A DNA stretch of 64,000 nt from an uncultured Bacilli bacterium. GTDB lineage: Bacteria; Bacillota_I; Bacilli_A; RF39; UBA660. Positions 3,447-15,565 of the stretch are shown here, in pieces; within the stretch, counting starts at the first letter, position 1, and every line of letters begins with the position of its first letter. Made by a program: the position numbers and the translations under genes. Under the pieces are notes generated by a model that saw nothing but the letters and a program-made list of their open reading frames with translations, did no database searches and was not told the DNA's origin. The stretch covers positions 1,761 through 65,760 of the forward strand of contig CANQKO010000005.1 in assembly GCA_947624505.1 (NCBI GenBank), given 5' to 3'.

Positions 3447-6400
3447 TTATCTCTCATAATCCTTATCGTTTTTATCATAATTCACTTCGTCATCATCTGC
3501 TAAATCAATAACTTCCTTTTCTTTTTCAGCCAAATTTAACAAGATGTTTACTTCATCAAGTCTTTTAGATTTTTCTTTTAATTCGTCCTCTTGTTTAAAT
3601 GGTCTTTTCATTTCTTCTTTAGCATTTTCATATTGAACTTTAACATCATCTAACTTTATTTCTTCGTCTTTTAAATCTTCTGGAAGTCCATCTATAACAT
3701 TATTTATTCTAGTAATATTACCAAGAGGATCTGTTCCAAGTGTCGCACAATGTGTTAATTCATTTTTTAAATTAAGATAAAAATGTTTAAAAGTAGAGTC
3801 ATATTCTAATTCCATTTGGAAACCTCTATAACTACCTATATCTATTTTTTGTGTAGAAGTTATTGACTTACACAATTCAATAATCTTTTCTCCTGCTTGT
3901 GCTTTGTCTGTATAAACTACATCTTTAATAGTCATACTTACAAACTTTTCTTCACTATTTGGAGTATTATTTTTTGCACATTCTATATCATTTTTAAATG
4001 CTTCTATTCGGCTTTCTAGCCTTTTAATTTCACTTGGATAGAATTTTACAACTCTATCTTCTATTGCATAAATTTGACTTAAATGTGTCTGTTTTAACAA
4101 CTTTAATTTAGCAACTTCAGTATCAAGTTCTGTCTTTTCTATGATAAGAGGATTACCTGCTGCAAGTGCTTTTATCTCGGCATAAGAAAGTGCAGTTTCG
4201 TCAATATCTTCTGCAAATCGGACTGGAGTTTTTGATGTCATTATCTGTGAAATAAATCTTTGTTTATTCTCTACTAACTGATAAAGATATGCGTCAAAAG
4301 TTCCCTCTGTTACATAACGATATATATAAACTTCTGGATTTTGATTTCCCTGTCTGATAATTCTTCCACTTCTTTGAATTAAATCACTAGGTCGCCACGG
4401 ACAGTCTAAATCGTGTAATGCAATTAGTTTGTCTTGACAGTTTGTACCTGCACCCATCTTTTGTGTACTTCCCATAAGCACTCTTGTTTTACCTTTTCTA
4501 ACACTAGCAAACAATTCTTTTTTTCTAATATCTGTATTAGCATAATGAATAAATGTTACCTCATCATCTGGTACACCCATATCTAATAACTTTTGTTTTA
4601 AGTCATCATACACATTAAATTTTCCATCATTATGTGGTGTAGATAAGTCACAAAATACTAACTGGGTAAGTTTTTCGTCCTCGTGTTCTTTCCATATTCT
4701 ATAAATATTATTAGCACAAGTTGCTACTTTACTTTCTGGATCATCTGGCAATAACTCATTCATAAGTCTTTGGTCTAGTGCTAACTTTCTACCATCATTT
4801 GTTATCTTCAGCATATTATCAGTAGAGGAATCAACTTGTTTATTTCTAACTCTTTCTGCTCTTTCTGATAGTTCTTTTACCATTTCTTTTTGTATTTCTG
4901 TTGGTTTAACAACAACATTTTCATAGTTTGCTTTAGGCACAGGTAAATTTAACATCTCGGCAGTTTGTATGTCTGCTACCTCTTTAAAGAGTGACATAAG
5001 TTCTGGTAAATTATAGAATTTTGCAAAACGAGTTTTGGCTCTGTAACCTGTTCCCTCTGGTGCTAATTCTATCGCCGTGACTGTTTCGCCAAAGGTCGAA
5101 GCCCAAGCGTCAAAGTGTTGCAAGTTTCTTTTTTCTAGTTCGCCATATTGCAAATATCGTTGCATTGTATATAACTCTACCATTGAATTACTAATTGGAG
5201 TTCCTGTTGCAAATACAATACCTTTTCCTCCAGTTAGTTCATCTAAATATCTGCATTTCATAAATAAGTCAGAAGATTTTTGTGCTTCTGTTTGTGCTAT
5301 TCCTCCAACATTTCTCATTTTTGTGTATAAAAATAAGTTCTTATAATAGTGTGCTTCATCAACAAATATTCTATCAACACCAAGTTCTTCAAAAGTAACC
5401 ACGCTATCTTTTCTCGTTTGGTCGTTTAATTTAGCAAGTTTATTTTCAAGTGTCTTTTGTGTTTTTACTAATTGTTTTACTGTAAAATTCTCGGCGTGAC
5501 TATTCTTTAAATCTTGTATGCCTAACATTATATCTTGTATTTGTTTCTCTAGTATTATTCTCTGTCTTTCAACAGACATTGGTATTTTTTCAAACTGTGA
5601 GTGAGATATAATAACAGCGTCATAATCTCCAGTAGCAATTCTGGAACAGAATTTTTTTCGGTTAGCAGTTTCAAAATCTTTCTTTGTGGTAACGAGAATG
5701 TTTGCACTAGGATAAAGTTGTAAGAACTCGGAACTAAATTGTTCGACAATGTGATTTGGTACAACAAACATTGATTTATTACATAATCCTAACTTTTTAG
5801 ATTCCATAGCAGCAGCGACCATCTCAAAGGTTTTGCCTGCCCCAACCTCGTGGGCTAGTAATGTGTTTCCACCATATAAAACTCTAGCAATAGCATTGAT
5901 TTGATGAGGTCTTAAAGTTATTTCTGGATTCATACCGTGAAATTTAATATGTGAGCCATCAAACTCACGAGGACGGTTACTATTAAATCTTTCGTTATAG
6001 ATTTTACTTAATCTTTCTCTACGGTCTGGATCGTTCCATATCCACTCATTAAAAGCAGATTTTATTTGTTCTTGCTTTGCTTGAGCGATAGCAGTTTCTT
6101 TTTTATTTAATTCTGCTATTTTATTACCATTTTCGTCTGTTGTGTAATCATATACTCTAACATCTTTTAAGTTAAGTGTTTCTTCTATAATTTTATAAGC
6201 GTTAACTCTACCTGTTCCAAAAGTAGAATAGGACTTAACATTTCCTCTATCACAGTTTTTACCCTCAACATTCCATTGTCCTGTTGCTTCCATATAATGC
6301 ACTTTTACATTTTCTTGAACATTCCAAGATGGTGTTAAAAGATAGAATATAAAATCTCTTACTACATCTTCTGGTAGCCAAGTAGCACCAAGTCTAACGG

Positions 6401-9400
6401 CAATTTCACTAGGTTGTAAATCTTCTGGTTGTACCTCCTCCAGATATTTAACATTTACTTCAAATGCAGGATCGTCCTTTGCAAACTCTCTAGCAATTTT
6501 TAATTTTTCACGAACATTACCACTTAAATATTCATCAGCCGTTACCCAATTATTAGGCTCGCCATATTCTGGAACATTAAATATTTGCCCCTCTAAATCT
6601 TTTATCATTTTATCCATATCTAAATTACATAGTTTTTGCATAAATGGTAAATCAACTCTTGCTTTTTCAGATATAGAAACAATTAAAGCCTCATTTGCAG
6701 TATCAACTTCTGTTATCTCTTTATGTGGCAATATTGTTCTTTTAGTAAACATATCGGCTTTTCTTTTAAGTTCTTTATTCTCATCTAATATCTCAAGTGA
6801 GCATAACAAGTAAAAACTACTATCATTAGAAAAAGCAGAGGTATTGGCTCTGCTATTTATTAGACCGTATTTCTTTGTAAATCGGTCATATAATCTATTT
6901 AATTTTACTTGCTCGTCTTTTATTTCCGAATCTGGATAATCTTCTGTTTGTAATTCTAATAAAGTTCTTACACATTCTCTTATTTCTATTAAGCCCTTAA
7001 TACGGTTTTCAGTAGTAAGTGGTAACTCTTGTGGATACATTCTACTATTTTCACGATAATAGATTTTATCGTCAACTAAAGTATATGAGAAGTTTCTAAC
7101 ATTACAGTCGGCAGGAATAGATAAATCTTCGTCATCTTCGCCTATATCGTCTATTTCATATTCCTTTATTTCAGCGTGTATATTTTGAATAGCACTATTT
7201 AATTGTTCCTCTAGTGATATATCATTTACAGGCTTACAAGTAGAATCCATACCATATTGTGTACTTACCATTTCCATAGTACCACATATCATATCTGGGT
7301 TATCCACAAAATACTTATTCATTTTTATACCATTTTCATCAGTATCTAAATATACCCAGTCTGGCTCTAAATCAGTAATGGAATCACGCTTTTGTAAAAA
7401 GATAATATCAGCAGTCGCTTGTGTTCCTGCATTATCTTTAAAAGTTGTATTTGGTAATCTTATAGCACCTAACAACTCGGCTCTTTGTGCTATATATCGC
7501 CTTACGCTAGGATTTTCTTTATCAAGAGTACCTTTACTTGTGATAAATGCTACTATTCCACCCGGACGCACCTTATCAAGTGTCTTGGCGAAAAAATAGT
7601 CGTGAATAAGAAAATTATTCTTATCGTACCTTTTATCTAATAACTTAATACTATTGAAAGGAACATTACCAATAGCACCATCAAAAAACGAATCTGGTAA
7701 GTTTGTCTTTTCAAAGCCCTGTACTGCAATAGAAGATTTTTGATATAACTGTCTTGCTATTCTACCAGAAATACTATCTATTTCAACACCGTATAACTTA
7801 CAGTCTTTTAAAGTATCTGGTATCATACCAAAGAAATTACCAACACCACAAGCAGGCTCTAGTATATTGCCATCTTTCATACCCATACTTTCTAATGCTT
7901 TATACATTGTACGAACTACAACAGGTGGTGTATAAAATGAGGTAAGTACAGAATCTAATGCCATTTTGTACTCATCTTCATCAAGAATATTTTTAAGTTC
8001 TAAATATTCATTTGCCCAAGCACTATTGTTTTCTTCAAATGCTTGTGATAAACCTCCCCAACCTACATACTGCGAAAGTATAATCTGTTCTTCTGGAGTA
8101 GCAAATCGATTTTCTTTTTCGCAAAGTTTTAGTACCTTAATTGCTTCAATATTGCGTCTAAATTTTTCTCGATCACTACCTACACCTAAATTATCATCTG
8201 TAATATGAAAATTGTGTCTATCTTCGTTTTTAATTTCTGGGTGTATATCAAAAGTAGTAACTTTTGACCTTTTCCTTTTCGCAAATTCTGGCACTATGGT
8301 ATCTTCTTGTGGTGTTTCTTGTTCTTTCTTTTCAGCAAGTAATGACTTAATTGTATCTAGTTTTTCTACTCTAAATATAGGAAGTCCGACAGTATTAGCA
8401 AATGTTATATCCATTAACTCTACTTCATCTTCATCTACCTTATTTATTCTATATTTTCGGTCATTCCACTCAAATTCTGTGCCTAAAAGTTCATCATTTT
8501 CTTGTTCTATTTTTTCCTGTTCTTCTACTCTTATCTCATATTTTTGTTGATATTCTTTTAATCTTTTTAAATCATTATTATCAACTAATTTAATAGTACC
8601 ATCTTCATTATAATCAAATAATTGATTAAATAGAAAATCATAAACTTCTTTACCTACCCACTCATACTCGTCATCATACATTACAATTTCTTCATTAGAA
8701 TTAAAATTAACTGTAATGTCGTTCTGATTATATTCGTCTAAAATATGCTTTACTAAATCAACTTCATCATTATATTCGCCATATTCATTAGGTTGTGCTA
8801 TTTCTTCTCTTTGAGCAAAATAATCACTTGCCTCGCTTCCAAAAACATCTTTTATGGAATCAACATAACCAGTATAATTTATATCGTCTTTTGTAACTAT
8901 TGCAAATACATTTTTAGATAAATCATCTTCAAAAACATAGTTACTTAAATCTCTAACAGTAACATAGGCTTTTTCAAAATTAGTCTTTTTAAATGCCTCT
9001 TGAAACATATAAAGGTCTTTTTCTGTAAATAATTCTTGTGTTACCCAATATAAATTATTATCTATTACAGAACTTTCTTTAAAACGCATATTATGTGAAA
9101 ATTGCTTTTCAAATTCTACTGCACTAAATTTATCATTTTTTTCTTCAGTAATAATAACTTCTACTTTTAAATGGTCATTACAAGGATTTTCTCGTACTTT
9201 TCTATCAAACTCCTCGAATGTCATCTCTTGATTAAATAATGGATATTGATAATCATATAATCTAACAATATCATTATCTATTGATAATATTTCAAATTCA
9301 TCTGCACCTATATAGACCTTATCGCCTACTTTGTATCTATAATCATAAACACCATCTTTTTGAGTTTCTGTAACTTCTTTTTCTGTTTGTTTTTCTTGTT

Positions 9401-11381
9401 CAATTAACTCAACTTGTTGTTCCCTTTTTTCTAGCCATTTTGAATATTCTTCTTTTTCCTTTGGATTAAGGTATCTATCAATTTTGATTAGTTCTTTTAT
9501 TCTTCTTTCAACATAATTCCATTTAAGTAATGTTTTTATCTCATTGTCAAAATAACCTCTGTATAAAGTAATTCCTTTACTATCAGCACTATAACCTATA
9601 CCAGATCCACGAATAGTATAAGAACTACCACTTAATCCATACATATTTTTTAGATAATTGATATTTTCAGTAGTAGATAGACTGCTTTGGAATTGTCTAT
9701 ATATAGCATACTTTGTTTCAGTATGTTGTGTTTGAAAATATTTATCTATAAACTCTTGTGAAAACTCTAGTTCTGGTAAGTCTTTGTTGTTATTGTCATC
9801 TAATAATGATAACTGTTCTTTTACAGATGGTAAGCGTTGCTCTCTATCATTTAATTGATGAAGCAATATCATTGAATCATAATGATAAGTTAAATCTTCC
9901 CAAGATACAAAACTTTCGGTATCTCGTGATAGAAAATTACCTTTCCATAATAACAAGCCATTTTCAAAGGCTTTATATCCATACATTTGCGTTCCAATAA
10001 AAATACCTACATATACATTTTCAAAAGCATTTTTAATGAACTCGGCTCTTTTTAAAGGCTCTTTTTCTAATTCAAAATATCTTTTTACTTCTGCTTTAGG
10101 TATTTTTAAATGGGCATAAGCAAGTATTTGATTTATTTTGTCATCAGTTACAACATACGGACAATGTGTTCCACTATCCTTATTCCAAAAGTCTAACTGT
10201 AAATTACTTCGGCTATTATCATTTCCTCTGCTCTCATCTTGCAGTTGTTCATTAGTCCCGTCCACTTCATAGGGTTGCTCTGTTTCAAGTTCTCCGTGAT
10301 GTTCTCTTTCTTCATCATCTCTTTTACTGTTTGTTCCACTCTCGCTTCTACTGTCTGTTGTGTTTCCATTAGATATTGTGACAACTCGTTCTTCATTAGT
10401 AGGCTCGTGTATAGGGGCTTGTTGTTCTCTTTCAAGTGGTTTAACATCATCAATGCGTATTTCCCATTGACTGCTTGTGACTCTGGTAGAACTAGGTCTG
10501 GTATTTGATAATCTCCTCGTGTTTGATAAGTTATTTGATTCATCTAAATCACTCCTTTCGGCAATATTTCTGCCATCATCTATATCATAATTGTTTTGCA
10601 TATTTTTATCAAATGTACGAATTTTATCAATTTCACTAATTCGTAGATTTTTTATTGTACTATAAATTTCACGAAGTCCACTCTCTGCTATATCACTTGT
10701 AGCAATACCTAGTCTAGTAATAGTATCATAAGTATTAAAATTAAGAAGTGGTGCAAAATCTTCTACTTCTAAATAATCTCTAGGATTAAGTCCACAACGC
10801 TTTAACATTACAAAAGCGACACTATTAGATAAAGTTTCTCTATAAATCTTTTCTACATTTAACTCATCTAATTCTTCTAGTCCACTATTGTTACGAAAAT
10901 ACATTAAATCCGATAGATAATCTGGTAAGTTATCTTGTACCATATTATAAGCACTTGATATAATCGCACTTGCAAGAGTTGTTTTATCTTCTAACTCTCC
11001 ATATCTATTTTCTAATGCTTCAATAACCTCTTGTTCGTAAGGTTTTGTAACAGACCATAAAACAATGTTTTTACCGTGCCTACTATTAGTATCAGACACA
11101 TCAAAAACATATTTTAAATATGGATTTCCATTTTGCTCTGTGAGAAGTGCTATACCTTTAGAGCCTTTATTTACCCATCTTTTTAAACTTCTATTCCAAG
11201 TTTCAATAGTAGCACAGGCTTTGGCTTCTGGCTTTTGTGCATATATAAGCACTTGATCCGAGAATGAATATTTATAGTTCATTGCTGCACAATTTAAAAA
11301 TGATAGCCACTCATTTGGGTTATTACTTATATCTTTTAAAGTTTCCGAATATATTTGTGTAATATCTCTATATTTTGCCAA
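3447..11381 (-). CDS. Giant polyvalent ICE protein: ArdC-like ssDNA-binding N-domain, several small modules, N6-adenine DNA methyltransferase, SNF2/DEAD-type helicase
   Basis: Uninterrupted 2,644-codon ORF. ArdC-N-type motif YSFSDQVLIYAQKPEAKACATIETWNRSLKRWVNKGSKGIALL. MTase motif I EPACGVGNFFG and motif IV GNVPF. Helicase motifs LAHEVGAGKTF, DEAHYYKN, ATGTPISNS and QRSGRIIRQGN. Confidence 0.9.
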   Translation of the reverse strand: MAKYRDITQIYSETLKDISNNPNEWLSFLNCAAMNYKYSFSDQVLIYAQKPEAKACATIETWNRSLKRWVNKGSKGIALLTEQNGNPYLKYVFDVSDTNSRHGKNIVLWSVTKPYEQEVIEALENRYGELEDKTTLASAIISSAYNMVQDNLPDYLSDLMYFRNNSGLEELDELNVEKIYRETLSNSVAFVMLKRCGLNPRDYLEVEDFAPLLNFNTYDTITRLGIATSDIAESGLREIYSTIKNLRISEIDKIRTFDKNMQNNYDIDDGRNIAERSDLDESNNLSNTRRLSNTRPSSTRVTSSQWEIRIDDVKPLEREQQAPIHEPTNEERVVTISNGNTTDSRSESGTNSKRDDEEREHHGELETEQPYEVDGTNEQLQDESRGNDNSRSNLQLDFWNKDSGTHCPYVVTDDKINQILAYAHLKIPKAEVKRYFELEKEPLKRAEFIKNAFENVYVGIFIGTQMYGYKAFENGLLLWKGNFLSRDTESFVSWEDLTYHYDSMILLHQLNDREQRLPSVKEQLSLLDDNNNKDLPELEFSQEFIDKYFQTQHTETKYAIYRQFQSSLSTTENINYLKNMYGLSGSSYTIRGSGIGYSADSKGITLYRGYFDNEIKTLLKWNYVERRIKELIKIDRYLNPKEKEEYSKWLEKREQQVELIEQEKQTEKEVTETQKDGVYDYRYKVGDKVYIGADEFEILSIDNDIVRLYDYQYPLFNQEMTFEEFDRKVRENPCNDHLKVEVIITEEKNDKFSAVEFEKQFSHNMRFKESSVIDNNLYWVTQELFTEKDLYMFQEAFKKTNFEKAYVTVRDLSNYVFEDDLSKNVFAIVTKDDINYTGYVDSIKDVFGSEASDYFAQREEIAQPNEYGEYNDEVDLVKHILDEYNQNDITVNFNSNEEIVMYDDEYEWVGKEVYDFLFNQLFDYNEDGTIKLVDNNDLKRLKEYQQKYEIRVEEQEKIEQENDELLGTEFEWNDRKYRINKVDEDEVELMDITFANTVGLPIFRVEKLDTIKSLLAEKKEQETPQEDTIVPEFAKRKRSKVTTFDIHPEIKNEDRHNFHITDDNLGVGSDREKFRRNIEAIKVLKLCEKENRFATPEEQIILSQYVGWGGLSQAFEENNSAWANEYLELKNILDEDEYKMALDSVLTSFYTPPVVVRTMYKALESMGMKDGNILEPACGVGNFFGMIPDTLKDCKLYGVEIDSISGRIARQLYQKSSIAVQGFEKTNLPDSFFDGAIGNVPFNSIKLLDKRYDKNNFLIHDYFFAKTLDKVRPGGIVAFITSKGTLDKENPSVRRYIAQRAELLGAIRLPNTTFKDNAGTQATADIIFLQKRDSITDLEPDWVYLDTDENGIKMNKYFVDNPDMICGTMEMVSTQYGMDSTCKPVNDISLEEQLNSAIQNIHAEIKEYEIDDIGEDDEDLSIPADCNVRNFSYTLVDDKIYYRENSRMYPQELPLTTENRIKGLIEIRECVRTLLELQTEDYPDSEIKDEQVKLNRLYDRFTKKYGLINSRANTSAFSNDSSFYLLCSLEILDENKELKRKADMFTKRTILPHKEITEVDTANEALIVSISEKARVDLPFMQKLCNLDMDKMIKDLEGQIFNVPEYGEPNNWVTADEYLSGNVREKLKIAREFAKDDPAFEVNVKYLEEVQPEDLQPSEIAVRLGATWLPEDVVRDFIFYLLTPSWNVQENVKVHYMEATGQWNVEGKNCDRGNVKSYSTFGTGRVNAYKIIEETLNLKDVRVYDYTTDENGNKIAELNKKETAIAQAKQEQIKSAFNEWIWNDPDRRERLSKIYNERFNSNRPREFDGSHIKFHGMNPEITLRPHQINAIARVLYGGNTLLAHEVGAGKTFEMVAAAMESKKLGLCNKSMFVVPNHIVEQFSSEFLQLYPSANILVTTKKDFETANRKKFCSRIATGDYDAVIISHSQFEKIPMSVERQRIILEKQIQDIMLGIQDLKNSHAENFTVKQLVKTQKTLENKLAKLNDQTRKDSVVTFEELGVDRIFVDEAHYYKNLFLYTKMRNVGGIAQTEAQKSSDLFMKCRYLDELTGGKGIVFATGTPISNSMVELYTMQRYLQYGELEKRNLQHFDAWASTFGETVTAIELAPEGTGYRAKTRFAKFYNLPELMSLFKEVADIQTAEMLNLPVPKANYENVVVKPTEIQKEMVKELSERAERVRNKQVDSSTDNMLKITNDGRKLALDQRLMNELLPDDPESKVATCANNIYRIWKEHEDEKLTQLVFCDLSTPHNDGKFNVYDDLKQKLLDMGVPDDEVTFIHYANTDIRKKELFASVRKGKTRVLMGSTQKMGAGTNCQDKLIALHDLDCPWRPSDLIQRSGRIIRQGNQNPEVYIYRYVTEGTFDAYLYQLVENKQRFISQIMTSKTPVRFAEDIDETALSYAEIKALAAGNPLIIEKTELDTEVAKLKLLKQTHLSQIYAIEDRVVKFYPSEIKRLESRIEAFKNDIECAKNNTPNSEEKFVSMTIKDVVYTDKAQAGEKIIELCKSITSTQKIDIGSYRGFQMELEYDSTFKHFYLNLKNELTHCATLGTDPLGNITRINNVIDGLPEDLKDEEIKLDDVKVQYENAKEEMKRPFKQEDELKEKSKRLDEVNILLNLAEKEKEVIDLADDDEVNYDKNDKDYER
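4250..5930 (-). other. Domain: SNF2/DEAD-like helicase module (approximate bounds)
   Basis: Walker A GAGKTF (nt ~5830-5860), DEAH box (~5337-5363), motif VI QRSGRIIRQGN (~4346-4380). Confidence 0.8.
7380..8210 (-). other. Domain: N6-adenine (amino) DNA methyltransferase module (approximate bounds)
   Basis: QYVGWGGLSQAFEE; SAM motif EPACGVGNFFG (nt ~7828-7860); catalytic GNVPF (~7651-7671); ADIIFLQKRD (~7381-7415). Confidence 0.75.
10193..10543 (-). CDS. TnpV-family ORF overprinted in the +1 frame inside the polyvalent gene
   Basis: 116 aa. MNQITYQTRGDYQIPDLVLPE...GKYALMMLNHLKENNKPLYTSLLMKNELSQYLMETQQ...ITENLKQSNPMKWTGLMNNCKMRAEEMIIAEVIYS matches my memory of TnpV (Tn4451-type) end to end. 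SD AAAGGAG at 10558-10552, 8 nt before ATG 10543. In-frame TAG immediately before the ATG, and TAG stop at 10193. Whether it is expressed is unknown. Confidence 0.55.
   Translation of the reverse strand: MNQITYQTRGDYQIPDLVLPESQAVNGKYALMMLNHLKENNKPLYTSLLMKNELSQYLMETQQTVEARVEQTVKEMMKKENITENLKQSNPMKWTGLMNNCKMRAEEMIIAEVIYS
10570..11381 (-). other. Domain: ArdC-like N-terminal (ssDNA-binding, antirestriction-type) region of the polyvalent protein (approximate bounds)
   Basis: aa 1 to ~270. SF-x-N/D-xxLI-xxQ ... W ... KG-x-KGI pattern as in ArdC/TraC1 N-domains. Confidence 0.6.
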
Positions 11382-12204: not shown

Positions 12205-12861
12205 CTAAACTTTCTCTACTAATTCGCAGATATAGATAATTTGCTTATTTGTACCGTGTCTGCAAGTAATTAAAGTTAAAGTGCTTTTTTCAGCATTTCT
12301 AACAATGTTAGCAGTTCCAGTTTTCTCAATATCATATTGATTAACAACTTTGTATTTGTACTCGCTACCATTATAGAAAAGGCTTACTTCATCATTACTT
12401 TGTAATTTATGAAGATTTTTAAAATAAGCAGTTCTACCACTTCCAGAGTGTCCTGCTAAAATAACATTCCCTTTCTCTTTATCTGGCATATCTGATTCAT
12501 TAAGAACAAGTATATTTCTATTTACATTGTTATAATAACTGCCTTTACTTGCTAGTCCTTTCTCTAATCCAATTTTAGGAATTTTAATTACTGCAAAATA
12601 ATCTATTTTGCTTTTAGTAGGTTGTACTACCTTATTTTCTTCTTTTTCTTCTGGAACTTCTGGTGTTTTATCTTCAGTAATTTCTTTTTGTTCTTCAAAA
12701 AAAACATCAATTAACTGTTCTTCATTTTTCTCTTGAAAGTAATTATATAAATACTTCCCACCAATAACTCCAATACCTAAAATGATAAGTAAAGAGCCAA
12801 CTATAATTAGTTGACTCTTACTACCTTTCTTATTCTTGATTTGATTTTTTCTTTTTAACAT
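12205..12861 (-). CDS. Sortase-family transpeptidase (ICE-encoded)
   Basis: N-terminal membrane anchor; catalytic His in VILAGHSG; Cys motif TLTLITCRHG. Overlaps the adhesin 3' end by 32 nt. Confidence 0.8.
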   Translation of the reverse strand: MLKRKNQIKNKKGSKSQLIIVGSLLIILGIGVIGGKYLYNYFQEKNEEQLIDVFFEEQKEITEDKTPEVPEEKEENKVVQPTKSKIDYFAVIKIPKIGLEKGLASKGSYYNNVNRNILVLNESDMPDKEKGNVILAGHSGSGRTAYFKNLHKLQSNDEVSLFYNGSEYKYKVVNQYDIEKTGTANIVRNAEKSTLTLITCRHGTNKQIIYICELVEKV

Positions 12862-15565
12862 AGATAATCACTCCTATTCCACCTAAAGTAAGCAATGCTC
12901 CTGCAATTTCAATGAAATGTGAATCAGTAATTCCTGTACTTGGTACTTCAACAATTACTTTTTCATCAGTCATTGTGGCTTTAACTATTTCGCCGTCTTT
13001 AAGAATTTCAAAATACATTCTTTCAGGATTTAAAGTATAGCCCTCTGGTGCTTCCTTTTCTAAAATATAGTATTTTCCGTATCTAATCTCTGGAATAGTG
13101 ATTTTTCCATTTTCGTCTGTTCTTCCACTAAAGATTAACTCATCTTTGTCATTGTAGATTTCAATAAGTGTATTAGGTAATGGCTCTCCTGTTGATACAT
13201 CAGTTTTTGTAAATTCAAGAGTTCCGGTTACTGGTTTATTTTTCATTTCAGCCTTAACGATTTCGCCATTTTCTTTTAATTCAAAATAAACTTTTTCAGT
13301 AGTAATTACATAGCCTGTACTTGGCTCTTTTTCAACAATATAGTATTTTCCTACTTTTAAATCATCAATGACAATTTTTCCGTCTTTATCAGTTTTTCCA
13401 GTAAAAATAAGTTCATCTTTATCTGTATAGATTTCAATAATAGTATCTGGAATAACATCTCCATTTACTAAATCAGTCTTTGTAAATTCAATAGTAGCCT
13501 TTTTAAGATAATTTAATGCACTATATGATTCATAAACGATAGGTGTTTCATCATCTACTTGTTTTAGAGTGAAATAGTGTTTATTTTCATCAAGTACATA
13601 ATCTTCTTGTGTTTTTACCTCTTTTAGATAGTATTTTCCAAGTGGTAATTTTTTTGATTTTGCATAACCATTTTCGTCTGTTACGATCGTATCTACTAAT
13701 TGGTCTTTCTCATAATATAAATGATTTCTGTCAGATGATAATATATCTTCTTCTGCATAGATTTCAAAAGTTACTCCACTTAATTTTTTCTTTGCATAAA
13801 CATATTCCCCATCTTTAATAACTAAATCTTCACCTACTTTATGGATTTCAATTTGTCCTTTAATTGGTGTATTTTTATAGGTTACTGTAATAAATGCACC
13901 ATAAGTTGTATAGTTATAATGAGTATCATTTCCAATAGTAAATTTTAATCCATCTTTATCTTTTAAGTAGCCATTTGGTGCTGATACCTCAATTAACTTA
14001 TAATTTCCTGCTTGTAATTTTAGAGGTGTTACCAAAATACCCTTTTCATCTGTTTTAAATTCACTAATTACTTTACCACCTACATATTGTGATACATATT
14101 GATTTGTATCTGTATTGAAGATTTTGAAAGTAGTATCTGCAATAGCAATAGTCTTTCCAGTTTCTTCATCTACTTTAATAACTTGTAAATATGCAGTTAA
14201 AGAGTTATTAAGTACATTGTAATATTGTTCTTTTTGACTTGTTTCATTTACTGTTATATAAAAATCATAAATTTTCTCATAACCTGTTGTAGTATTTACT
14301 TGATGGAATTTCCAAACTCCATAAGGTAAATTGATAGAAGCATAACCGTTTTTATCAGTAGTTATTTCATCAAATTTAGTTCCGTTTGGATAATAGATTT
14401 CAAAAGTAATACCTTTTTCAGCATTTAAAAATTTTGTTTCTCCCTCAACGTGTTCATATTGTTTTAGAATAGAAACATAGTTTTTAATTACTTTTTCTAC
14501 AACATCAACTCTTGCAGAGTCTTTTCCTTTTACATCTACATTATAACGAGTTTTATCTAGTTCATAACCCTCACTTGGTTTGATTTCTTGTAAATAATAG
14601 TCTTTCCACTCTAATATTGCAGGGCTTTTAAAATAACCGTTTTTATCAGTAACAACAGTTGTTACCAATTTTCCTGTTGCAGTTTCATAAATACCATATT
14701 CAGCACCTTTTAAAGTTGCTTGTCCCTGTGCAGTACCTGTTTCACTATCAGTTTTATAACCCTCTACTGGAGTTTTATAACTTTTTACTCTAATTTTAGC
14801 AATTACTGGATCTGTTGTACCGGGTACTAACATATTTTGAATACCATCTCCAACGAATAATTTATAACTAGAAGCATAAGGCATTTTCTTTGTTAAAGTT
14901 AAATCAATATTTCCATCTTTAGTTGGCTTTATAGTAAGTACATTACCATTTACATTATAGTCTGCACCACTAACACTAATTGCATATTCAGATAATACAT
15001 TGTTAGTGTCTGTTAAAGTAATTGTTTCTCCTACTTGTGCTTTATAAACGCCACCATTAAATGATGGTCTTGTATAATGAGTAGAGATAAGTCTTTCAAT
15101 TTCTGCTTCTTCAGCAGATACATCAAATTGTGTGCCTTTTCCCCATCTTTCAGACCAAAATGTTGTATGAGCCCCATTACCTACAATAGTATTCCATATC
15201 ATACCTTGAGTTGCTGCTCTATATTTCATTGTTTGATGATTTGGATAAGTATAACCATAATAACCAATTAACAAAATTCTTTCCTTTATTGAATTTGGTA
15301 AGCCTGTTGCTTCCCAAGTTGTTGTTCCAGATGGATAAGTTATACCCTCTGGAATATTAGGCTCTATACAATACGAAACCTCGCCGTCCATCTCGTATAG
15401 AGTAAAGTGCCAAGAATGTGCGTCACTTCCGTCTGCGTGTGATCTATTATACCAATAATCAGAATAATTCTTTTCTAATGTCGCTGCATTTACTGATTGT
15501 GCATTGACAGTAAATCCAACTAAAAGACCTAGCGTTAATGCTAGGCACATACATATTTTTTTCAT
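12830..15565 (-). CDS. Cell-wall-anchored adhesin: N-terminal thioester domain plus six CnaB/SpaA-type repeats and an xPxTG sorting signal
   Basis: Signal peptide MKKICMCLALTLGLLVGFTVNAQSVNA. Thioester-domain signatures YCIEP (Cys) and AATQGMIW (Gln). Six repeats carrying TD(K/E)(N/D)G(Y/K/I). C-terminal VPSTG, a hydrophobic helix, then KKKK. Confidence 0.8.
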   Translation of the reverse strand: MKKICMCLALTLGLLVGFTVNAQSVNAATLEKNYSDYWYNRSHADGSDAHSWHFTLYEMDGEVSYCIEPNIPEGITYPSGTTTWEATGLPNSIKERILLIGYYGYTYPNHQTMKYRAATQGMIWNTIVGNGAHTTFWSERWGKGTQFDVSAEEAEIERLISTHYTRPSFNGGVYKAQVGETITLTDTNNVLSEYAISVSGADYNVNGNVLTIKPTKDGNIDLTLTKKMPYASSYKLFVGDGIQNMLVPGTTDPVIAKIRVKSYKTPVEGYKTDSETGTAQGQATLKGAEYGIYETATGKLVTTVVTDKNGYFKSPAILEWKDYYLQEIKPSEGYELDKTRYNVDVKGKDSARVDVVEKVIKNYVSILKQYEHVEGETKFLNAEKGITFEIYYPNGTKFDEITTDKNGYASINLPYGVWKFHQVNTTTGYEKIYDFYITVNETSQKEQYYNVLNNSLTAYLQVIKVDEETGKTIAIADTTFKIFNTDTNQYVSQYVGGKVISEFKTDEKGILVTPLKLQAGNYKLIEVSAPNGYLKDKDGLKFTIGNDTHYNYTTYGAFITVTYKNTPIKGQIEIHKVGEDLVIKDGEYVYAKKKLSGVTFEIYAEEDILSSDRNHLYYEKDQLVDTIVTDENGYAKSKKLPLGKYYLKEVKTQEDYVLDENKHYFTLKQVDDETPIVYESYSALNYLKKATIEFTKTDLVNGDVIPDTIIEIYTDKDELIFTGKTDKDGKIVIDDLKVGKYYIVEKEPSTGYVITTEKVYFELKENGEIVKAEMKNKPVTGTLEFTKTDVSTGEPLPNTLIEIYNDKDELIFSGRTDENGKITIPEIRYGKYYILEKEAPEGYTLNPERMYFEILKDGEIVKATMTDEKVIVEVPSTGITDSHFIEIAGALLTLGGIGVIIYVKKKKSNQE

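Follow-up and report, generated by a model that had tools for sequence, protein, structure and literature searches.

A tnpV gene nested out of frame within the gene of a giant polyvalent protein in mobile elements of Bacillota

We analysed a stretch of 64,000 nucleotides (nt) from an uncultured Bacilli bacterium (GenBank assembly GCA_947624505.1, contig CANQKO010000005.1, positions 1,761 to 65,760; hereafter the window), in which a complete gene of the TnpV family lies, on the same strand and one base out of frame, inside an open reading frame (ORF) of 2,644 codons. The explanation that we favour, with a probability of roughly 0.8, is that the two ORFs are an old, conserved and selected nested gene pair in which TnpV is made by internal initiation, carried by a family of plasmids and integrative/conjugative elements of Bacillota. 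The 351 nt of the tnpV region would be read in two ways. Translation from the TTG at 11381 would turn them, in the giant frame, into part of a disordered linker between the ArdC-N-like head of a polyvalent protein and its methylase/SNF2-helicase body; ribosomes recruited by an internal GAAAGGAG (10559-10552) would start at the ATG at 10543, one base later in register, and produce a folded TnpV of 116 amino acids (aa). In what follows, positions are those of the window, and the features on which the argument turns are these:

3447..11381, minus strand: the giant ORF, 2,644 codons, with a TTG start (11381) preceded by AAGGAGGTG.
10193..10543, minus strand: tnpV, 116 codons plus TAG, with an ATG start and a full-length match to Pfam TnpV.
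10552..10559, minus strand: the Shine-Dalgarno (SD) sequence GAAAGGAG of tnpV, 8 nt before the ATG.

The starting point was a sequence-only reading of the window, which had proposed a complete TnpV-family gene with its own SD and stop codon, out of frame in a giant polyvalent gene. Its coordinates and translation are correct (the stop is the TAG at 10195-10193), and the Pfam search that it had called for placed the 116-aa product in PF14198 (TnpV) over the whole length of the profile (residues 5-114 of the product on positions 1-111 of 111; score 112.6 bits, where the cut-off is 27; E=1.2e-32). The product falls within the size class of the family (about 114-125 aa) and contains the invariant or near-invariant family residues Y6, G10, D11, Y12, P15, G27, K28, Y29, P91, M92, W94, G96-N100, E106 and E107. 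Modelled by AlphaFold2 with 26 homologues, it is predicted to form an N-terminal beta-hairpin followed by a helical region of five helices, with a mean predicted local distance difference test score (pLDDT) of 85. A scan against NCBIfam matched no TnpV model and gave one spurious weak match only, and a DNA search of the region against plasmids gave no match. In Tn4451 tnpV is a stand-alone gene, and here it is nested within the ORF 3447-11381; this position is a trait of the locus and not of the protein, so that membership in the TnpV family stands.

According to the ORF list, the tnpV register is one base off that of the giant ORF, such that each giant-frame codon consists of position 3 of one tnpV codon and positions 1 and 2 of the next. 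Chance is excluded as the reason why the giant frame is open across tnpV. When tnpV was recoded synonymously with the giant ORF's own codon usage (5000 trials), the giant frame acquired a mean of 11.1 stops and was open in 0/5000 trials, which bears out the earlier claim that such long open frames are unlikely by chance; the third same-strand frame has 23 stops over the same stretch. The same recoding predicts 2.9-14.6 stops in 68 related loci with enough flanking ORF (probability of an open frame from <2e-4 to 0.04 per locus), and all 68 have zero. The giant frame is free of stops because tnpV codons avoid ending in T: only 9% of tnpV third positions are T, as compared to 40% in the giant ORF, and among the 40 tnpV codons that stand before AA, AG or GA none ends in T. 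A giant frame that must stay open would thus account for both the unusual tnpV codons, with almost no T endings, and the local rise in guanine plus cytosine (GC) content that the sequence-only reading had noticed (0.37-0.40 over 10100-10600, about 0.24-0.32 in the flanks). The same reading had also seen host-like codons in the giant frame, an over-interpretation, as these codons follow from the A/T-rich second positions of tnpV. Finally, it had pointed to an open antisense frame:

10239..10508, plus strand: antisense ORF, 89 codons, without a Pfam match.

This ORF is present, and it carries no weight as evidence because it is not conserved in relatives: the three antisense frames are stop-free in 19, 7 and 1 of 77 embedded relatives. 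The sense strand is T-poor, which makes the antisense ORF a by-product that lies outside the system.

To see how far the arrangement extends, related loci were collected in two samples. The TnpV-selected sample contains 94 loci, including 80 from a scan with a TnpV alignment, with one genome per species. Since the pattern of this first scan favoured one TnpV subfamily, a second scan of metagenome contigs was seeded on motifs of the head and was blind to the state of the junction; it yielded 79 analysable loci (the head-selected sample). tnpV is nested in the identical relative frame in 79 of the 94 TnpV-selected loci, and 75 of the 79 head-selected loci are nested as well, with giant ORFs of 2,000-2,465 codons on contigs long enough to contain them; this is the embedded outcome of the synteny comparison that the sequence-only reading had suggested. 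In nested loci tnpV begins about 750-900 nt past the stop ahead of the giant ORF, and about 850 nt into that ORF; over the length of tnpV the giant frame is without stops and the third frame has 8-28. The nested loci span GC contents of 0.25-0.63, and their TnpV proteins are down to 32% identical to that of the window. The closest TnpV proteins on record are 43-64% identical to the window's, and every long contig that encodes one of them has the tnpV ORF inside a large ORF (1,880 aa in L001, 2,675 aa in L004 and 2,503 aa in L005; in L002, a 544-aa ORF followed by a separate 1,743-aa methylase-helicase). Nesting is also found in L006, L007 and L091. Free-standing tnpV genes make up 13 of the 94 TnpV loci and have 3-14 stops in the frame equivalent to the giant one; examples are L008, upstream of tet(O/W/32/O), and L092, after a tnpX-like recombinase gene as in Tn4451. 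Among the truly free tnpV loci we found no remnants of head or body.

Taken over both samples, about 150 related loci have two intact ORFs in this register. The window alone could have been explained by a sequencing or assembly artefact with compensating indels, an alternative raised in the sequence-only reading, and homopolymer indel errors do occur in the assemblies of some relatives (L170 has them throughout). That about 150 independent loci, sequenced in many studies and on many platforms, agree in register, distance and open frames excludes it for practical purposes and leaves it a negligible probability. Likewise, relatives in which one of the two frames is routinely broken, which would have spoken against dual coding, were not found: broken forms are a minority (L094, L097-L100, L003, L025, L046, L061 and L080).

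The same loci bear on the idea that the giant ORF is untranslated across the overlap, so that there are three real genes (head, tnpV and methylase-helicase) and the openness of the giant frame is incidental. Split forms do exist, both in L002 and in L097 (a head-TnpV ORF followed by a separate called gene of 1856 aa), and the Prokaryotic Genome Annotation Pipeline (PGAP) calls tnpV plus a truncated large gene. Yet about 150 loci lack any giant-frame stop over the tnpV stretch, against an expectation of 3-15; no stop closes the head ORF by itself; the split of L002 lies after the overlap and not at it; and L097, a variant described below in which a run of seven A is reduced to six, keeps the giant frame open across all of tnpV. 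We consider three separate genes very improbable.

If both frames are used, substitutions should bear the marks of two constraints. However far the embedded tnpV genes have diverged, their differences are most frequent at position 3 of the tnpV codons, less so at position 1 and rarest at position 2. For pairs with heads 80-90% identical, we compared the differences at fourfold-degenerate sites (and, in the overlap, at amino acids) between segments and frames:

Head, giant frame: fourfold-site difference 0.39.
500 codons downstream, giant frame: fourfold-site difference 0.37.
Overlap, tnpV frame: fourfold-site difference 0.176, amino-acid difference 0.11.
Overlap, giant frame: fourfold-site difference 0.018, amino-acid difference 0.225.

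Values for the giant-frame overlap range over 0.018-0.06 at fourfold sites and 0.22-0.47 at amino acids. The synonymous sites of tnpV thus change at about half the flanking rate, a slow-down that is expected if the second frame also matters. Judged by these patterns, the tnpV frame is the main amino-acid constraint on the overlap, and selection on the giant frame acts to keep it open and, weakly, on its sequence or composition. Selection on both frames is therefore visible in the tnpV substitution pattern, the avoidance of giant-frame stops and the slowed tnpV synonymous sites, in line with the frame-specific constraint for which the sequence-only reading had proposed a check. Together with the kept registers and the start signals described next, it supports the genuine dual-coding locus that was one of that reading's two alternatives.

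A fossil tnpV, swallowed by a fusion, no longer expressed and kept open only by the constraint on the giant frame, is hardly credible given these rates. It would suit the facts that support for TnpV expression is comparative and that gene callers and RefSeq often annotate just one of the two genes. The substitutions, on the contrary, follow the coding frame of tnpV, with hardly any change at giant-frame fourfold sites and free change in the giant-frame amino acids; lineages 32-64% identical to the window still have the complete TnpV ORF with its SD and start; and an unexpressed frame would gain stops, as the third frame does (8-28).

The signals at the tnpV start point to internal initiation. 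The 8-nt spacer between the SD and the ATG (10543-10541) ends with an in-frame TAG (10546-10544), and the giant frame translates the SD as Glu-Arg-Ser. Nested loci have 89 distinct junctions, and an SD lies 7-10 nt ahead of the start in every one of them (in 52/89 it is GAAAGGAG); the start codon is ATG in 86 and GTG in 3. The local RNA fold predicted for the window leaves the SD unpaired, the start region is not unusually structured (fold z-score -0.9), and Rfam contains no known RNA family that matches it (best match E=0.88). The conserved ATG/GTG and SD spacing support internal initiation and argue against a programmed shift from the head, which would need neither. Upstream of the SD the junction region is prone to repeat expansion: in L152 an 18-nt unit, aataatgaagaaaaaaat, stands three times in tandem directly ahead of the tnpV SD, and relatives have one copy.

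The most serious competitor for the expression of TnpV is a programmed +1 frameshift near GAAAGGAG, instead of or beside internal initiation, which would make a head-TnpV fusion of roughly 396 aa. Internal SD-like elements are known to stimulate frameshifting, as in prfB and dnaX, and one is present here; elements of group B carry a run of seven A just upstream; and the called proteins often include head-TnpV forms of about 396 aa joined in frame, one of which, P0070 (396 aa, with TnpV in frame from its start), recurs without change in at least 24 contigs. We nevertheless judge a programmed shift improbable. An ATG or GTG at the exact start in 89/89 junctions, with normal SD spacing, is not needed for shifting; the window, the L002 group and L003 have an in-frame stop directly before the ATG, which leaves a single codon in which to shift; no slippery motif is conserved across lineages; switch points are scattered among close relatives; and those in-frame fusions that were checked in the DNA are 1-nt deletions of otherwise identical elements.

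These fusions came to light in a protein search with the head (aa 1-276), which gave 617 hits, the best 120 of which were analysed. None of these 120 homologues is longer than 483 aa, though the DNA of most of the loci encodes 2,000-3,000 aa, so the missing giant products are a property of the protein collection and not of the DNA. Called head-TnpV proteins are mostly about 383-399 aa and end at the tnpV stop. The broken forms read base by base (L094 and L097) are 1-nt deletions. The deletion of L094, in the middle of the overlap, disrupts both genes and leaves the giant-frame linker fused to the C-terminal half of TnpV. In L097-L100 a change from A7 to A6 in gaagaaaaaaatagtg, about 25 nt upstream of the tnpV ATG, puts the head in the TnpV frame and yields P0070; L097 differs from 16 otherwise identical nested loci (L101-L114, L161 and L166) by this change only, and the A6 form could be a circulating mutant or reflect a tract of variable length. 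A further group contains relatives of more than 90% identity whose frame switches lie at different points. A head-TnpV in-frame fusion as the true architecture was rejected on account of the 1-nt deletions, the scattered switch points and the nesting of 75/79 head-selected loci.

As for the giant protein, its layout starts with an ArdC-N-like head and a disordered linker, followed by further modules, an N6-methylase-like region and a SNF2/DEAD helicase. SNF2-rel_dom, ResIII and Helicase_C are above the Pfam cut-off, and Methyltransf_25 and Eco57I match weakly. Its first 480 aa were modelled with AlphaFold2 and 28 homologues, which delimits two segments:

10608..11381, minus strand: head domain, aa 1-258, predicted to be folded and ArdC-N-like; pLDDT about 80-98.
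10122..10607, minus strand: disordered linker, aa 259-420; pLDDT about 26-33, without secondary structure.

The ArdC-like head proposed in the sequence-only reading has moderate support: the Pfam ArdcN match is below cut-off (E=0.0025), and the top Foldseek match among solved structures is ArdC of R388 (6sna_A; probability 1.00, E=7e-3), with a TM-score of 0.45 (normalised to the target). The disordered linker that it saw in the giant frame agrees with the model, as the overlap with tnpV corresponds to aa 280-396 of the giant protein, wholly inside the modelled disordered stretch, and folding resumes from about aa 413. The overlap peptide in the giant frame is S/N/D/E/R/G-rich and poorly conserved between relatives, and its few conserved stretches mirror conserved tnpV motifs. 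With ArdC-N, methylase and SNF2 helicase domains, the giant protein combines several conflict-related domains in one polypeptide, as polyvalent proteins do.

The surroundings of tnpV contain two further candidate signals, both of which lie within the giant ORF:

10584..10612, minus strand: candidate promoter-like site, TTGATA (10612-10607), 17 nt, TATGAT (10589-10584).
10159..10179, minus strand: weak hairpin GGATAGTGGAACACATTGTCC then GTATGTTGTA, 14 nt after the tnpV stop.

The promoter-like site is inside head-coding DNA, its second hexamer ends 40 nt before the tnpV ATG, and it has the best score of 125 equal windows in the giant ORF. An equivalent TTGnnn-17-TAnnnT site, with the exact 17-nt spacer, ranks in the top 10% or better in 14/25 diverse relatives. 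Sigma-70-like motifs are located 31-52 nt upstream of the tnpV ATG in L001, L004, L007, L031, L042, L056, L065, L072 (Christensenella hongkongensis HKU16), L075 and others, and the T at the sixth position of the second hexamer is kept even in GC-rich hosts. The promoter region overall has fewer consensus matches than shuffles, and we regard the site as a candidate that is suggestive only. Downstream, relatives have a stable hairpin with a T-tract 30-110 nt after the tnpV stop, still within the giant ORF (e.g. L034 at stop+54, L035 at stop+76, L051 at stop+41, L006 at stop+61, L031 at stop+31 and L102 at stop+108). Ranked against the rest of the giant ORF that contains it, this site falls in the top 5% or better in 27/38 diverse relatives, and in many of them no other window of the giant ORF scores as high. 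The hairpin arms are encoded by unrelated peptides across lineages (EAE..PSAF, ADS..LPAF, IDLL..NRSI and IADI..DIPAI), and in an alignment of 23 hairpin sites 4/8 pairs have changed on both sides with pairing kept, a count confounded by GC content and by the choice of the sites for their folding.

The promoter-like and terminator-like sites suggest that tnpV can be a small cistron nested in a large one, which in many lineages would have its own start and end of transcription; this part of the proposal is weaker than the nesting itself. The hairpin could also gate transcription into the body of the giant gene. In its full form, with tnpV a self-contained cistron (promoter, SD, ORF and terminator) and the hairpin a translation-dependent gate into the methylase-helicase body, the idea is doubtful: the polymerase would pass the hairpin only when a ribosome in the giant frame covers it, and TnpV-only transcripts would stop there. 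If such a gate were true, the element could switch between TnpV alone and the full polyvalent protein, for example between a resting donor and transfer or entry into a recipient, and a large share of the TnpV family would exist only in nested form, hidden by annotation pipelines.

Returning to the nested pair with internal initiation, several observations weigh against it or against parts of it. Support is comparative throughout, for both products and at every locus. Among the best 120 head homologues, 37 run from the head into the tnpV frame, with switch points scattered from upstream of the tnpV ATG to codon 89; the frame-switched forms are single-base indel variants, either mutants or errors, which leaves room for their use by the elements. 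Mosaic recombination between segments could be part of the cause of the slowed tnpV synonymous rate. One clade (L035, L033, L059, L066, L068 and L081) has no promoter-like motif, and where the motif is present it overlaps a conserved peptide, RTF...Y[DNS]. The hairpin of the window (10179-10159) failed the stricter scan, in which the window's clade had no strong downstream hairpin. Finally, TnpV has no relative among solved structures, by sequence or by Foldseek (none with E<5), and the nesting has no functional rationale because TnpV is without known function or structural analogue.

How could a folded protein come to share its codons with a linker? In the history that we propose, a free tnpV had a head gene on one side and a methylase-helicase gene on the other, read-through in another frame fused the three, and the fusion was then retained, so that the linker would be the younger reading of the two. 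This is the simplest history because the tnpV frame is folded, conserved and also free-standing, and the giant frame is disordered and drifting; read-through would be easiest in T-poor or GC-rich DNA, because the probability of an open frame there reaches a few percent. The sequence-only reading had offered a recent fusion as its second alternative. Fusion by read-through is most likely the ancient origin of the arrangement, and the word recent does not hold, as nesting is common to lineages whose TnpV proteins are only 32-64% identical to that of the window. None of about 170 loci contains a three-gene ancestor with separate head, tnpV and body. In a neighbour-joining tree of the 116-aa protein, without support values, free forms are both basal and within nested clades. 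L048 and its relatives L054, L060 and L067 are free-standing tnpV genes that group with nested clades; L048 has no stop in the former giant frame and the other three have 3-4, which, in a tree without support values, is compatible with a recent escape from nesting.

Nested out-of-frame genes of this kind are known. Rz/Rz1 of phage lambda and, in microviruses, B in A and E in D are complete same-strand genes nested in another frame, each with its own SD and start, and as here both frames of the pair are kept by selection. Those are phage genes with short products (Rz1 about 60 aa, E 91 aa), whereas the nested gene here encodes a folded 116-aa family that also occurs free-standing, its carrier is a conjugative element, and the surrounding frame encodes a disordered linker in a protein of about 300 kDa. 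In Bacillus subtilis, comS is a small, independently translated gene located out of frame inside the giant srfAB, and is likewise a small out-of-frame gene in a giant multidomain gene of a Firmicute. It has 46 codons, is limited to close relatives and overlies a folded enzymatic domain, in contrast to the 116 codons of tnpV, its presence in several Bacillota orders and its position over a linker. Although the kind is known, neither this example, nor its wide distribution, nor the overlap of a folded protein with a polyvalent-protein linker appears to have been described.

The Tn4451/Tn4453-type mobilisable transposons and MOBQ-type integrative mobilisable elements carry the same TnpV family at full length and in the same length class, share the motifs GDYxIP, GKY, PMKWTGLMNN and AEE, and also belong to the mobile elements of Bacillota; their tnpV is free-standing with both other frames closed (3-14 stops), unlike that of the window, which is nested in the giant ORF. 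For TnpV, an Xis-like role has only been postulated (PMC3158075), and it 'may be involved in transfer' (PMC12084326). Literature citing PF14198 lists it as a domain of unknown function in mobilisable elements or among transposase-type domains. We found no nested arrangement in the papers that name TnpV, in agreement with the statement in the sequence-only reading that no description was known. Polyvalent proteins of conjugative elements and phages were described by Iyer, Burroughs, Anand, de Souza and Aravind in 2017 (PMC5512222), and like those proteins the giant protein here has an ArdC-N-like head, a methylase-like region, a SNF2-type helicase and a conjugative-element neighbourhood. Neither TnpV nor overlapping genes, frameshifts or internal initiation come up in that paper, and a second gene nested in an inter-domain linker is new here. 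Among bacterial overlapping genes, long well-supported cases are few and annotation programs forbid them (PMC8665328).

Annotation of the locus in public records reflects this. In the Clostridium perfringens JXNC-3B plasmid NZ_CP102305 (L006) the tnpV match lies beneath a single coding sequence called 'helicase-related protein'; Monoglobus and Cohnella records have a 'TnpV protein' beside a gap or a truncated large gene; and a GenBank Monoglobales metagenome genome has a 'TnpV protein' with the large gene truncated or missing. Of the records of L006, L007 (Monoglobus pectinilyticus, NZ_OY725736), L091 (Cohnella herbarum MFER-1, NZ_CP051681) and L004 (GCA_047234745.1), none lists both genes whole, and in L001 and L005 the giant ORF is absent from the called genes. 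Databases thus list only one member of the pair, which biases any tally of TnpV or of polyvalent proteins for gut mobile elements. Outside viruses, long genes that overlap on the same strand are rare, and claims of them are often disputed; comparative support is unusually strong in this case, with a Pfam family kept in one fixed register in about 150 loci of many Bacillota orders and clear constraint signatures in both frames. The pair would be a clean natural case in which to study codon sharing between a folded protein and a disordered linker, and the origin of such overlaps by read-through fusion. TnpV is moreover physically tied to an anti-restriction polyvalent protein of gut conjugative elements, which gives a lead to its function.

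The neighbourhood of the giant gene is that of a mobile element and includes ParA, ParB, an adhesin with SpaA, thioester (TED) and LPXTG features, a sortase, DUF3848, DUF3991-Toprim, a helix-turn-helix protein and a NikA-like protein. Relatives have the same gene order, giant ORF included, with a relaxase gene after the NikA-like gene. The adhesin is a 911-aa surface protein (12830-15565, minus strand) with a TED domain, six SpaA-type domains and an LPXTG anchor; the sortase gene (12205-12861, minus strand) comes after it, upstream of the giant gene, and the adhesin-sortase pair is also found in relatives. In two other loci (L095, 7365-8348; L096, 9273-10256) the element is cut off after the head, leaving a 327-aa head ORF followed by S4-domain, Fic and polysaccharide-synthesis genes, without tnpV or helicase body. 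The remainder of the window, from 18000 to 64000, contains about 40 further ORFs, nearly all on the minus strand.

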